A DNA stretch of 44,061 nt from IMG/VR virus record IMGVR_UViG_646564533_000010; one strand, written 5' to 3'. Source of the DNA: a virus (lineage: Duplodnaviria; Heunggongvirae; Uroviricota; Caudoviricetes). Each line of letters begins with the position of its first letter. The stretch's first letter is position 1. This document shows positions 9,001-15,000 of this stretch, piece after piece. Position numbers: made by a program.

Positions 9001-12000
9001 GTTACCAGAGGAAGAGGAAGAGGAAGATCTAAATACTGATCTCCCCCTAAATCCCCCTCGCCAAAAACGAGCGTCTAAAAAATTCGAGCCGGAGGCTATT
9101 GAGCTGCCCGATTGGTTGCCGGAAACACTCTGGCATGAGTGGGTCCGGTTCAGACAGGCATTGCGAAAACCGATTCGAACGGAGCAGGGCGCTAACGGGG
9201 CGATACGGGAACTGGAAAAATTCCGTCAGCAGGGTTTTACACCTGAGCAGGTGATTCGACACAGCATCGCCAATGAATACCAGGGCTTGTTCGTACCGAA
9301 AGGTGTTCGGCCTGAGACGTTGCTCCGACAGGTTAACACCGTCTCGTTGCCGGACAGTGCGATCCCGCCAGGCTTCAGGGGGTAACAGACCATGAAAAAT
9401 ATTGCGACAGGCGGCGTTCTGGAGCGTATCCGTAGACTGACCCCACCACATGTAACCGCCCCATTCAGAACGGTTGCGGAGTGGCGTGAGTGGCAACTTA
9501 CTGAAGGCCAGAAACGTTGCGAGGAGATCAACCGTCTGAATCGTCAGTTGCGGGTGGAAAAAATTCTGAATCGCTCTGGCATCCAGCCGTTGCACCGTAA
9601 ATGCTCGTTTGCGAATTACCAGGTGCAGAACGACGGCCAGCGATACGCGTTAAGCCAGGCGAAATCCATCGCTGATGAACTGATGACCGGGTATACAAAT
9701 TTTGCGTTCAGCGGAAAACCTGGTACCGGGAAGAATCACTTAGCGGCAGCTATCGGGAATCGCCTGCTGAAAGACGGTCAGACAGTGATTGTGGTTACCG
9801 TGGCTGATGTTATGAGCGCCCTGCACGCCAGCTATGACGACGGGCAGTCAGGCGAAAAATTTTTGCGTGAACTGTGCGAAGTGGACCTCCTGGTTCTTGA
9901 CGAAATTGGCATCCAGCGTGAGACGAAAAACGAGCAGGTGGTACTGCACCAGATTGTTGACCGCCGGACGGCATCACTGCGCAGTGTCGGGATGCTGACA
10001 AACCTGAATCATGCCGCAATGAGCACGCTTCTTGGTGAGAGGATTATGGACCGGATGACCATGAACGGTGGTCGTTGGGTGAATTTTAACTGGGAGAGCT
10101 GGCGGTCAAACGTTGGACGTCAGGGTATGTGAGAATTTTTAACGAGGTGAATTTTCGATGGAAACCGTATTACATGCACTGAAAGCGATGGGAAAAGCCA
10201 ATTCTGTTGAACTGGCGGCACGAATTGATATCAGCCGTGAAGAAGTTCTCAACGAACTGTGGGAGCTCAAAAAAAATGGCGTTGTTGATAAAACGGGTCA
10301 CACCTGGTTTCTGGCTGTCGAAGGTGAATCCCGGGTAACCGAAGAGCGGCCAGTAAAATCTGAAACACAGGATATGCTGACCGAAGAGGTCGCTCCAAAA
10401 GTTAGCGCTAACATGATGATTGAGTTTATCGGTCAGGATGGGGCTAAAACGTGTGAGGAACTGGCGGGTAAGTTCGGTGTCAGTACTCGCAAGGTTGCTT
10501 CCACGCTGGCGGTGGTAACCGCAACGGGGCGGCTGGCACGCGTTAATCAGAACGGTAAATTTCGTTACTGCATGCCGGGCGATAATTTACCAGCAGAGCC
10601 GAAAGCCGCGCTGGTAACGGAAAGTGATGGTAAGGCCTTTCCTCAGCCAGCAGGTGCTGCGTTACCAGTCCGGGAAGCCGCAACACAGGAAGAAATTAAA
10701 ACAGAAACTGTGGCGGACATTGTGCAGCCGTTGCCATCGTTTACCGAAACGCAAGCAGATGAGCTGATTTTTCCGTCCCTTCGCAGGGCAAACCTGGCGC
10801 TGCGCAGGGCGAAAAGTGATGTTCAGAAGTGGGAGCGAGTCTGCGCCGCGCTGCGGGAGCTGAACAAGCACCGGGATATTGTTCGGCAGATTGTCGATTC
10901 ATCCGGTCGTATTGTGTCGGAAAAGTGATTGCCGGAGGCGCTTATGGCGAAACCTTTTACACACGAACAGCGTGAAGAACTGAAGGCCCGAATTATCGGG
11001 CTGGTACGCAAAAATGAACGCATGACGATATCACAACTGGAGAGAGCGACGGGAGCAGGCTGGCATTCAGTCAGACGTTGCCTTGTGGATGTACTGGCTT
11101 GTGGCGATTTATACATGCCCGGTAAATACGGTGTTTTTACATCAGAACAGGTGTATCGCGTATGGCGTAAGGCAGCGGAGAAAACAACCGACCAGACATT
11201 GATTCGAAAGTTACCAGACGGAGAAATACGCCGCTACGACAGACAACAGAACATAATCTGTGGCGAGTGCCGGAAGAGTGAAGTTATGCTGCGTGTACTG
11301 GCGTTCTATCAGGGCAATTTTCAGGAGGCGGTACTGTGAGTGAATTAGCTATCAGGCTTCAATTGTCGCTGGCATTCGCATCAAAGGAGAATGAGATGAC
11401 CACTTTTACAAAAGAGCAGTTAATCAGTCATGTTAGTGAAAATGTAAAGGCGATGAAATTTGCAGTAAAACAGACAGCATTCAAAAATTCTCTCGAGGCA
11501 ATTGAGTTGGATTTAGCACTGGCCCTTGTTGCTCAGGCTTCGCTGGAAGCAGAGCCCGTGCTTTATATGAATCGATTTACCGGAAAGACATTCTCACTGG
11601 AAGAGCAACCCGGTGCTGATAAGGAACCGGAAATATACGTGCCGCTATATGCTGCCCCGCCAGACAGCGCCGCCATGCTTCAGGCTGGAAACTTTCGGGA
11701 AAAAAAGGGTTCGTCAACCAATAATTTTCGGGAAATCTCGGAAACGTCAACCAACTATCCGGTAACTCTGGATGGTTGGATAAGCTGTAGTGAGCGAATG
11801 CCGGATGACGGTCAGCACGTAATTATTTTATGTGATGGCGCATTCGTTCTTTATGCGCAATATCGAGACGGTGAGTTTTTTGATGTAGTCCGTGATGGTG
11901 ATGAATTTTTCGAAACACAGAGCCGCAATGTAACCGACTGGATGCCGCTACCAGAACCGCCGCAGGAGGTGCGCCAATGAACTGGCCTGAAGCATTTGCA

Positions 12001-15000
12001 ATTACAGGCGTTGCTATGGCTATCGCTTTTTTAGTATATGTTATTTGTCGGTGGGGGTAAAAACGTTCGCCGGGATTCACACCAAAGGAGGGAATATGTC
12101 GGATGATATTTCACTGGCAATGGAAGGTGCGCTGGCTGTTATTGCTGTTGTGGGCGTTTACTGCCTGGTTGTGTTTTTGATGGATCGACTAGGGAACTGA
12201 ATTCATTACGATATGGGAATTCCCATATCGGGTAAAAACGGTTTGCGGTAAAGCGAGAGTTAAGTAGAATTGCTGCGGGTGCTTGAGGCTATCTGCCTCG
12301 GGCATGAACACCAACGGCAGATAGAGAAAAGCCCCAGTTAACATTACGCGTCCGGCAAGACGCTTAACATTAATCTGAGGCCATATCTATGACTTGCACA
12401 TGTAGGTTAGCCTCTTACGCGCCGAAAGGCAAGGAGAAGCAGGCTATGAAGCAGCAAAAGGCGATGTTAATCGCCCTGATCGTCATCTGTTTAACCGTCA
12501 TAGTGACGGCACTGGTAACGAGGAAAGACCTCTGCGAGGTACGAATCCGAACCGGCCAGACGGAGGTCGCTGTCTTCACAGCTTACGAACCTGAGGAGTA
12601 AGAGACCAGGCGGGGGAGAAATCCCTCGCCACCTCTCATGTGTCAGGCATCCTTAACGCACCCGCACTAAACCCGCTTCGGCGGGTTTTTTGTTGCGCGC
12701 TGAATGCGCAGGGTGAAAAATAACCATATATTTGATTATATACACAACAAAAAAATAAAAGTCATTGTACCTGCACATTAAATAATCAAATATACGGCGT
12801 GAAATAAATATTTTTCAGATTAATATTTTTGTCTCTATGTGGATATAACCGTTTGTACTTATAAACTCGGAGGCATCGTGGAAAAAATAAAGAAACTATT
12901 TAGTTGCAAATACGCAGTCATACGTCGTGATGACCTGTCAGTTATAGTCGAAATGGATTACTTCCCTGAAACCCCAAAATCAATGATGTATCGTAATGGT
13001 CGAAAGGCAATTTTTTTACCGATGAGGGTAAGTGACATTATGGGAAATGATAAACTGCTGGATGAATTGCGAGTCAGAGCATCCTGTTAGTATTGGCATT
13101 AATTCTGGTATACTACATAATGGGCTGAACACCCATTCTACTGCGCCAGCGGAGAACTACGATGGCGCATATACAACTGGTCAAACAAACCTCTTCCGGA
13201 TTACTTCTCCCGGCGACGCCGGAGAGTTGCGATTTTTTGCATCAAATCAAAATAGGTGAGTGGATACACGCAGACTTTAAGCGTGTGCGTAACTACGCAT
13301 TCCACAAGCGTTTTTTCAAACTCCTGCAACTGGGATTCGATTACTGGACTCCGAACGGTGGGGCGATCACGCCTCGCGAACGAGAACTGGTGTCCGGTTT
13401 CGTTGATTTCCTGTGCGAATCAGTAGGTCGGGAACATACGCCAGCCCTGAGTGATGCCGCAGAGCAATACCTTAACACCGTTACGACTTGCAGAACCCGG
13501 GATACGGCCTTACTCAAGTCCTTTGACGCTTTTCGCGAATGGGTAACCATTCAGGCCGGATTTTACACCGAACATTTTTATCCGGACGGTAGTCGTGGGC
13601 GCAGGGCAAAATCTATCGCATTTGCGAACATGGACGAAACCGAGTTTCAGCAGGTTTATAAATCTGTACTGAATGTGCTGTGGAACTGGATCCTGTTCCG
13701 TAAATTTTCCTCTCCGGAGGAAGTCGAAAATGTGGCCGCGCAGTTACTGGAGTTTGCGTAATGGTGGATTTACGTAAAGCGGCGCGGGGGCAGATGTGCA
13801 CAGTCAGAATTCCTGGCTACTGCAATCACAATCCCGAAACTTCTGTGCTGGCGCATTACAGGCTGGCGGGGACGTGCGGAACAGCGACAAAACCACACGA
13901 TATGCAGGCGGCGATTGCCTGTAACTCATGCCACGATTTAATCGACGGGAGAGTAAAAACCAGCGATTACACCAAAGAAGAATTGCGCCTGATGCATGCA
14001 GAAGGTGTTTTTCGCACACAAGAGATCTGGAGAAAGGACGGTTATTTATGATTTACCCAACGAACACAGGAAAAAGCGGAGAGCACCTTCGTCTCACCAC
14101 GCTGGAAAGTGTCTGGATTCAGGGGAAACTACGTATGTGGGGGCGCTGGTCGTATATTGGCGGCGGTAAGACGGGAAATATGTTCAACCAGTTGCTGACC
14201 TCTAAAAAGCTGACAAAAACGGCAATTAACGAGGCGCTCCGGAGGATGAAAAAAGCAGGTCTGGACAAACCTAAACTTGAGGCTTTTTTGCGGGATATGA
14301 TCAACGGCAAGCAAAAAAGCTGGCTGGTGCATTGTACCGATTCAGAGGCGTTAATAATCGACAGGGTTATTGGTGAAGTACTGGCAGGTTATCCCGGGCT
14401 GCTCAATGTTCTGAGTCAGCGTTATGTGGGGCGGGGGATGACTAAGCGCAAAATGGCTGAACTGCTGAATGATGCACATCCGGAATGGAGTTTAAGAACC
14501 TGTGAAAGACGCATTGAGCATTGGCTAAAGGTGGCAGAATTTATTTTGTACAAACCAATGGTTATGGCTTTTGGTATAGAGAAAAAAGTTATTGCTTTTT
14601 GACGTAAAAACTGCTTCAATTCCGGTAAGCTTCGCAAAGCTGTATCGCGAGGCGAACCAAACGCATGAACTTTACCAGAACCCGCCATTGAGCGGGTTTT
14701 TTATTGCGGAATTAATTACGGACCGTTATTATTCTGCTCCCGGCCCTTTAGCTCAGTGGTGAGAGCGAGCGACTCATAATCGCCAGGTCGCTGGTTCAAA
14801 TCCAGCAAGGGCCACCATATCACATACCGCCATTAGCTCATCGGGACAGAGCGCCAGCCTTCGAAGCTGGCTGTGCGGGGTTCAAGTCCCCGATGGCGGT
14901 CCATTATCAGCATCATGCGTTGTTAGCTCAGCCGGACAGAGCAATTGCCTTCTAAGCAATCGGTCACTGGTTCGAATCCAGTACAACGCGCCACACCACA

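Follow-up and report, generated by a model that had tools for sequence, protein, structure and literature searches.

The IMG/VR virus record IMGVR_UViG_646564533_000010 is a 44,061-nucleotide (nt) stretch of caudoviral DNA (here called the window), in which a block of five genes, designated A to E, lies between the replication module and a hok toxin locus. With moderate confidence, we read this block as what would be the accessory segment usual in Escherichia coli lambdoid prophages of the Rac / CP-933P type, within their delayed-early rightward operon. In our reading it would consist of three independent modules: a gene pair, A-B, that may serve in counter-defence; a cargo slot holding gene C, which encodes a DUF551 protein, together with gene D, which encodes a peptide of 27 amino acids (aa); and, as the third module, a cassette for a 34-aa membrane micro-protein, E, just 5' of the hok promoter. 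The block is not one system, because A and B form a fixed unit while the stretch from B to hok varies. Our data establish that the genes are real, which families they belong to, the order in which they lie and the extent to which they are conserved. All parts are already catalogued, as DUF1627/YdaW, DUF977/Ren-like, DUF551 and XECs145, the exception being the 27-aa micro-gene. The statement in the first-pass annotation that none of the five has an assignable function was therefore too strong, since A, B and C are exact members of the first three of these families.

The arrangement of A and B was assessed in 80 viral-contig loci that encode A at 90-100% identity. In all 80, A directly follows the last replication gene and B directly follows A, with a 15-nt gap between the two in 75. 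The replication gene that precedes A is DnaC-like in 40 of these loci and of an unrelated 221-aa type in the other 40. Because the order is kept in every locus with either type of replication gene, we regard A-B as a fixed pair on the end of the replication module. The B-to-hok interval, by comparison, ranges from 1.1 to 4.5 kb across loci and holds alternative cargos, which include several DUF551/ea-type proteins, QueH/DUF208-like, DUF4406-like and Zn-ribbon-like proteins, and small membrane ORFs (open reading frames).

Within the window the block spans positions 10158-12200 and consists of five co-oriented, tightly packed ORFs on the plus strand: A (10158-10928; 256 aa), B (10944-11339; 131 aa from ATG, or 136 aa from an upstream TTG), C (11396-11980; 194 aa from ATG, or 214 aa from a GTG at 11336), D (11977-12060) and E (12096-12200). 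Both our ORF list and our reading of the sequence agree with the five ORFs of the first-pass annotation, and its placing of them in an accessory position held up as well, in that the block is a segment of the early-right operon with a mosaic slot between the DUF977 gene, B, and hok. Upstream lie genes for an O-like initiator (phrog_2509) and a DnaC-like loader (PF01695, phrog_50), and the block is bounded downstream by a hok/sok/mok type I toxin-antitoxin locus (12277-12601, plus strand), identified with Rfam and Pfam and treated here as context only. The intergenic gaps, from the one preceding A to the one preceding E, are 25, 15, 56, -4 and 35 nt, and a consensus scan found no convincing terminator ahead of the one past hok at 12669-12688. 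Because the gaps are small and no convincing terminator precedes that of hok, A to E would appear to share a transcript from the early-right promoter with the replication genes. A scan of the block for promoters and terminators gave no more candidates than expected from shuffled sequence, and its GC content is unremarkable.

At 99% identity, the window matches a prophage of E. coli 2014C-3061 that is inserted beside yebY and contains ralR, recET, kilR, ydaS/T-like genes and ydaV; on the basis of this insertion site and gene content we class the prophage as Rac / CP-933P-type. When we searched 5,426 complete E. coli genomes with a 2.6-kb query (window positions 10100-12700, that is, the block plus hok/sok), at least 80% of the query was found at a single place in 384 genomes, and parts of it were found in 4,997. 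The exact sequences of all five proteins are already present in public protein collections; four of the five are each found on hundreds to at least 1,000 contigs, and D has been called on three contigs only. Given the 384 genomes, and given that E has already been published as XECs145, the description of the block as the best place in the window to look for uncharacterised biology was an overstatement.

Gene A encodes a full-length YdaW-type protein. It matches PF07789 (DUF1627) across the whole model (positions 1-155 of 155) with an E value of 1e-98 and 327.9 bits (gathering threshold 28.1), and it matches phrog_630 at 5e-134. The helix-turn-helix (HTH)-like segments previously noticed in both the 256-aa and the 131-aa proteins were recovered, in A as winged-helix matches to hidden Markov models (HMMs) and in B as a confident winged helix in the structural model. 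The matches in A are many and sub-threshold, and fall at residues 1-55 and 86-137. An AlphaFold2 (AF2) model of A reached a predicted local distance difference test (pLDDT) score of 42 from a shallow alignment of 85-95% identical sequences, and we used its secondary-structure pattern alone. In that pattern, two units of the order helix-helix-helix-strand-strand are followed by a long linker and, at the C terminus, by a helix of 50 residues. This is in keeping with the HMM matches, and suggests an architecture in which two winged-helix units (residues about 1-55 and 84-137) are followed by a linker predicted to be without secondary structure and by a long C-terminal helix at residues 206-255.

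The K-12 relative of A is YdaW (b1361) of the Rac prophage, which has the same two winged helices, is 59% identical to A over residues 1-154 (E value 5e-62), and is encoded after the DnaC-like ydaV, in the same place as A. However, the K-12 protein is the 186-aa product of a shortened allele and covers only positions 1-64 of the 155-position DUF1627 profile, whereas A has the full C-terminal half, including the long helix. We considered K-12 YdaW as a DUF977 protein and homologue of B, and rejected this, since YdaW matches DUF1627 and is thus the homologue of A. The idea that A is a duplicated Ren, and so a paralogue of B, was dropped as well, hhalign giving a probability of 8% for a relationship between the two families. 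A sequence search of solved structures in the PDB yielded nothing usable for A, B or C. Single database proteins of 403 and 372 aa fuse the DUF1627 and DUF977 domains, and a 204-aa singleton also has PF01371 (Trp repressor); all of these are probably read-through or gene-calling fusions of neighbours.

Gene B belongs to DUF977 (PF06163; E value 3.2e-72, 241.3 bits, gathering threshold 22.1). It also matches phrog_142, 'Ren-like exclusion protein', at 1.7e-43, a score comparable to that of lambda Ren against the same PHROG (1.6e-41). In a single BLASTP comparison B and lambda Ren are 29% identical over 87 columns (E value 2e-6), and the alignment takes in a C-terminal motif common to both, ECRxSxxMxRVLAxY, which in B forms part of the conserved motif LPDGEIRRYDR..NIICxECRKSxxMxRVLAFY. 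Across an alignment of 43 DUF977 proteins plus Ren, conservation is highest in this C-terminal region, and twelve columns are invariant even when Ren is included. The AF2 model of B (mean pLDDT 78, with residues 10-75 above 90) consists of a winged helix and then a less confident, small beta/alpha C-terminal part. When this model was compared with the PDB using Foldseek, only generic winged-helix domains were returned (IclR, GntR, MntR, MarR, FtsK-gamma and Rpa2), none with an E value of 0.001 or below, and the C-terminal motif had no match in this fold search.

B and lambda ren are both located in the early-right operon, close behind the replication genes. Lambda ren lies directly 3' of P, and in phages HannyBb and Tritos a DUF977 gene lies directly 3' of an O-like gene; in the window, gene A intervenes and separates B from the replication genes. 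B further differs from Ren in being 35 residues longer and only 29% identical, and Ren itself does not reach the Pfam DUF977 model at an E value of 0.01. The classical phenotype conferred by ren is growth despite Rex exclusion, after which the gene is named, and ren is dispensable for lambda replication. Homology of all members of the block to ordinary nin-region proteins, which the first-pass annotation had named as the outcome that would speak against it, was found for B as a homologue of ren and not for the other members.

Gene C proved to be the DUF551 protein it had been called, matching PF04448 at residues 127-190 (E value 1.1e-20, 74.6 bits, threshold 22). It also matches phrog_60, phrog_924 and phrog_660, and its N-terminal part is held in common with EaA-like proteins; it is an ea-type modular protein. 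A homology search with C returned only sequences that are at least 97% identical. DUF551 proteins have been linked in the literature to Ea22 variants and YfdS. C has the same portable DUF551 domain that forms the C terminus of certain Ea22/Ead proteins (variant V2 of Ea22 in Stx phages; YfdS of CPS-53), and in Stx2a_WGPS2 an Ead_Ea22+DUF551 protein is followed by the same 27-aa micro-ORF as C is, while in 933W the Ead_Ea22+DUF551 gene is located one gene 5' of that micro-ORF. Unlike those proteins, C is without the Pfam Ead_Ea22 N-terminal domain, for there is no match to PF13935 at an E value of 0.1, whereas the 933W and WGPS2 proteins match it at 1e-35 and below. Furthermore, C is encoded in the early-right region and its relatives in the ea region beside int/xis. 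Since C was found in only 26 of the 80 A-containing loci (tblastn, E value of 1e-3 or below), we consider it cargo rather than core. The slot, which would be prone to recombination, would here be occupied by the ea-type protein C and by the 27-aa membrane micro-protein D. Elsewhere it contains a 228-aa QueH/DUF208-like ORF (11 loci), an 88-aa DUF4406-like ORF (16 loci) or a 137-aa Zn-ribbon-like ORF (19 loci), names that come from reading the sequences only. A polyubiquitin-like signal over residues 50-113 of C (FTGKTFSLEEQP compared with LTGKTITLEVEP) had a summed E value of ~1e-5 with no single stretch passing, and we treated it as chance.

Gene D starts within the end of C, its ATG overlapping the TGA stop codon of C (ATGA), with AGGAGG located 7 nt 5' of the start. 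Using a 20-nt pattern from the start, covering the first seven codons, we retrieved at least 120 viral-contig stretches, 80 of which were analysed. All 80 preserve an ORF of 23-29 codons, mostly 27, whose product follows the pattern M[TNS]WP[ED]AF...[IV]CRWG. In all 80 the start takes the form ATGA, with a TGA able to stop an upstream frame, and in 65 the upstream ORF ends there. The identity of that upstream gene varies, its product ending in the DUF551-type tail ...WMPLPEPPQEV[NR]Q, in ...GLISVEDVLR or in other sequences, and a GGAGG or GAAGG ribosome-binding site (RBS) is kept throughout despite these differences. Because its start codon overlaps the upstream stop codon, D is probably translationally coupled to the gene before it. 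Across 40 distinct alleles the ratio of nonsynonymous to synonymous polymorphism (pN/pS) is 0.37 in frame compared with 0.80 and 2.28 off frame, and all alleles have stops in both other frames.

Protein homologues of D with 55-70% identity occur in 92 phage records, and carriers include 933W, VT1- and VT2-Sakai, BP-4795 and the virulent Vequintavirinae phage TH18. Outside the Enterobacteriaceae, a 27-aa homologue with 67% identity is found in PP818812.1 (Actinobacillus phage vB_Apl-pPE4 by its record name). D is present in 737 of the 5,426 E. coli genomes, and among the matches listed the RefSeq feature is that of the neighbouring DUF551 gene only. No Pfam or NCBIfam model scored above its curated cut-off with D, no PHROG match was significant (best E value 0.0065), and a few records file the peptide as 'hypothetical protein' with no family entry. 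We conclude that D is a genuine micro-gene, conserved yet for the most part unannotated.

Gene E is preceded by AAGGAGG 5 nt 5' of its start and is annotated as a hypothetical protein, WP_001278450. It occurs in 731 of the E. coli genomes, with a median of 3 copies, and its pN/pS is 0.44 in frame compared with 0.60 and 1.04. An exhaustive HMMER search of 1.84 billion representatives returned only seven near-identical entries, so that the family is very narrow; no Pfam or NCBIfam match reached the curated cut-off, and no PHROG match was significant. HannyBb, Tritos and some viral contigs have a second subtype of the peptide, (M)LVLKCALAIAAVMAIYCLAVVLMDRLSD, which shares with the first the core ALA..A...YCL.V.LMDRL; by eye, ORFs of this second type have a conserved promoter-like sequence, TTGAA(T/G)-N17-CATATT.

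A full-text literature search for the peptide sequences gave no match, and the sequence of E turned up only in a supplement. E has the same sequence as the C-terminal 34 residues of XECs145 (E. coli O157:H7 Sakai), a product reported to be translated by ribosome profiling (RIBOseq) in this strain and predicted to be located in the inner membrane (Hucker et al. 2017, PMC5597208). The authors of that study called a 54-codon ORF and assigned no function to it; they applied a 30-aa length cut-off, which the 27-aa D does not reach. The strong Shine-Dalgarno sequence and the pattern of conservation favour the 34-codon start over the 54-codon one. In lysogeny broth (LB) at 37 C, XECs145 had transcriptome and translatome values of 79.1 and 346.1 reads per kilobase per million (RPKM), a ribosome coverage value (RCV) of 4.35 and a coverage of 0.99; the corresponding figures were 121.3, 150.1, 1.14 and 0.84 in the brain heart infusion (BHI) control, and 73.3, 1.1, 0.01 and 0.37 under BHI stress (PMC5597208). 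Judging from these published data, E is apparently translated without prophage induction. The two tiny peptides that the first-pass annotation picked out by their strong RBSs thus correspond to genes, as indicated by the conservation of the ORFs, by pN/pS and, for E, by published RIBOseq.

Downstream of E, sok is recognised by Rfam RF01794 at 12277-12451 (108 bits), and hok, at 12446-12601, by PF01848 at 1.2e-23; the latter is annotated as hokD in a near-identical genome. A repeat search found two direct copies of an 11-bp sequence, GGGTAAAAACG, one on each side of the E cassette (12055-12065 and 12230-12240); in 933W, as in other phages, the GGGTAAAAACG junction joins the stop of D directly to the hok promoter region. 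Because the repeat brackets E here and joins D to hok elsewhere, this arrangement suggests that E was inserted or exchanged by recombination at the GGGTAAAAACG junction. Between the E stop and the hok promoter region there is also a 22-bp perfect palindrome, CGATATGGGAATTCCCATATCG (12209-12230), which is nearly conserved in a 90%-identical relative and can form a 9-bp RNA hairpin (-19.6 kcal/mol, z -3.4) with no U-tract behind it.

Across loci, hok is found within about 500 nt 3' of D in 35 of the 71 with enough downstream sequence, and in the early-left region of 933W a D homologue directly adjoins sokW/hokW. For E, 27 of 32 copies have the hok start 200-260 nt 3' of the gene, even where the upstream context is unrelated. 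Looked at from the side of hok, 33 of 80 phage hok loci have D and/or E upstream and 47 have neither. At several other hok loci a different 59-aa ORF with two transmembrane (TM) segments (MKNALQFLFVAFWLF...CIEYWR) occupies the same upstream spot, and truncated 3' ends of both E subtypes, as well as relBE in a hokD-type arrangement, also occur upstream of hok elsewhere. The association of D and E with hok is real and not obligatory, and the flank of hok is a recombination hot spot.

D and E resemble the hok/sok loci hokD and hokW-sokW in that both are short hydrophobic peptides encoded immediately 5' of hok. However, neither matches the Hok/Gef family, neither has evident antisense RNA or fold-back regulation, and, in contrast to typical type I toxins, the Shine-Dalgarno sequences of both are strong and apparently exposed. 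Antisense promoter-like sites numbered 5, against 4.6 expected in shuffles, and the RBSs are strong and not obviously occluded. The hydrophobic cores of D and E point to a single TM helix and a membrane location for each, and the peptides would most simply be small inner-membrane proteins.

What A and B do is a matter of weighing. The two would be made together with the replication proteins, and we think that they most likely constitute an anti-exclusion or counter-defence pair that would bind abortive-infection sensors or effectors, or would mask a replication-associated trigger, as proposed for Ren against RexAB. Taken gene by gene, and by analogy with Ren and YdaW, such a function is a tentative possibility for B, short of an even chance, and for A it is rather doubtful. 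The alternative, which we regard as unlikely though a serious contender, is that A and B are ordinary DNA-binding proteins of replication or early transcription, such as origin accessory factors or early-gene regulators. Their winged-helix domains resemble the DNA-binding domains of IclR, GntR, MarR and MntR, the pair always lies directly 3' of the replication genes whatever the type of replication module, YdaW is listed in the literature among uncharacterised E. coli transcription factors, and one source calls Ren 'likely involved in DNA replication'. Yet phrog_142 takes its name from lambda ren, two-hybrid assays are reported to show the Rex proteins interacting with both O and Ren, and B is most conserved not in its recognition helix but in the non-HTH C-terminal motif that it has in common with Ren. 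In addition, a genome-wide screen lists ydaW as one of the prophage genes that block RcaT, the toxin of retron-Sen2, and a review repeats this listing. The suggestion in the first-pass annotation that counter-defence genes may be found at this position accordingly stands in part: it is supported by the membership of B and lambda Ren in phrog_142 and by the ydaW screen hit, and is not supported by any match to a PADLOC model. Against PADLOC-DB, the block proteins gave weak HTH-type matches only (best 1.2e-5, a CARF-associated HTH), with nothing for C or D and a chance-level match for E (E value 0.023), and NCBIfam offered no functional assignment for any of them. The PADLOC result weighs against our preferred explanation, as do several other points. 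The ydaW result is a screen hit on the truncated K-12 allele, whose individually validated status could not be confirmed; one source describes Ren as a likely replication protein; winged helices fit plain DNA-binding regulators equally well; the model of A is of low confidence; A and B have no detectable paralogy; and the RIBOseq reads assigned to E may have been multi-mapped over prophage copies or may have come from spontaneously induced cells.

For D and E, the most sceptical alternative is that they are chance reading frames in intergenic or boundary sequence. Both are very short, and D is without annotation by the Prokaryotic Genome Annotation Pipeline (PGAP), but the length and frame of the D ORF are kept in 80 of 80 alleles, down to ~70% nucleotide identity, the in-frame pN/pS of both genes is well under the off-frame values, the RBS of D is kept though the upstream genes differ, and RIBOseq supports E. 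The conservation data effectively refute this alternative, which we consider scarcely credible. The proximity to hok raises the possibility that D and E are membrane-active partners of Hok (co-toxins, lysis-timing helpers or immunity peptides), so that there would be three-part hok modules, and the figures given above for D, for E and for phage hok loci, together with the 59-aa two-TM ORF found at others, are what speaks for it. We judge this improbable: more than half of the hok loci (47 of 80) have neither peptide, truncated 3' remnants of E lie beside intact hok genes, D is found in the absence of hok too, a virulent Vequintavirinae phage being one such case, antisense promoter-like sites are no commoner than in shuffled sequence, and the association may merely reflect shared mosaic segments. 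Any functional link of D or E to Hok is, on this evidence, weakly supported and quite improbable, and we give just as little credence to the broader idea that D, E and the 59-aa ORF form a recurrent class of hok-flanking membrane micro-proteins that modulate Hok as immunity or timing factors or as co-toxins. It is unlikely too, if less so, that D and E act independently of hok on inner-membrane proteins of the host, in superinfection exclusion or in the modulation of transporters or proteases. Short hydrophobic cores under purifying selection, the translation of E in lysogen cultures, as expected of a moron, and what seems to be a promoter-like sequence belonging to the type-2 E ORFs would fit such a role, but neither peptide has homology to any characterised small membrane protein in Pfam, NCBIfam or PHROG.

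Other features of the prophage lie outside the block. Rfam matches were obtained at 1557-1735, 6471-6522 (minus strand), 14742-14990, 15103-15311 and 15312-15371 (minus strand), and the Rfam families found elsewhere in the prophage are the RalA antitoxin RNA, DicF, three tRNA genes, STnc100 and the anti-GcvB small RNA AgvB. Just past the hok terminator, positions 12650-13100 have a low GC content (0.36). An 83-aa ORF at 12839-13090 (phrog_1813) is found on at least 1,000 contigs, and shorter forms of it are named 'bacteriophage cohesive ends' or 'bacteriocin' in some sources.

Our findings illustrate that a stretch labelled 'unknown function' can still be ordinary, in this case one that hundreds of complete E. 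coli genomes carry, frequently more than once, and the leads that the block offers would not overturn current understanding. What they add is a 27-aa micro-gene that is conserved over many temperate and some virulent coliphages even though RefSeq, among the matches listed, has only the DUF551 gene beside it, and small membrane ORFs that recur directly 5' of phage hok loci. If these peptides did modulate Hok, phage hok/sok would be a three-component membrane module, and the 27-aa peptide would be a widespread micro-gene coupled to ea-type genes, even in virulent coliphages; the hok-flanking micro-peptides alone might repay experiments. The invariant pairing of a Ren-like protein with a full-length YdaW would, for its part, be a sensible target for studying how Ren-type proteins evade abortive infection.

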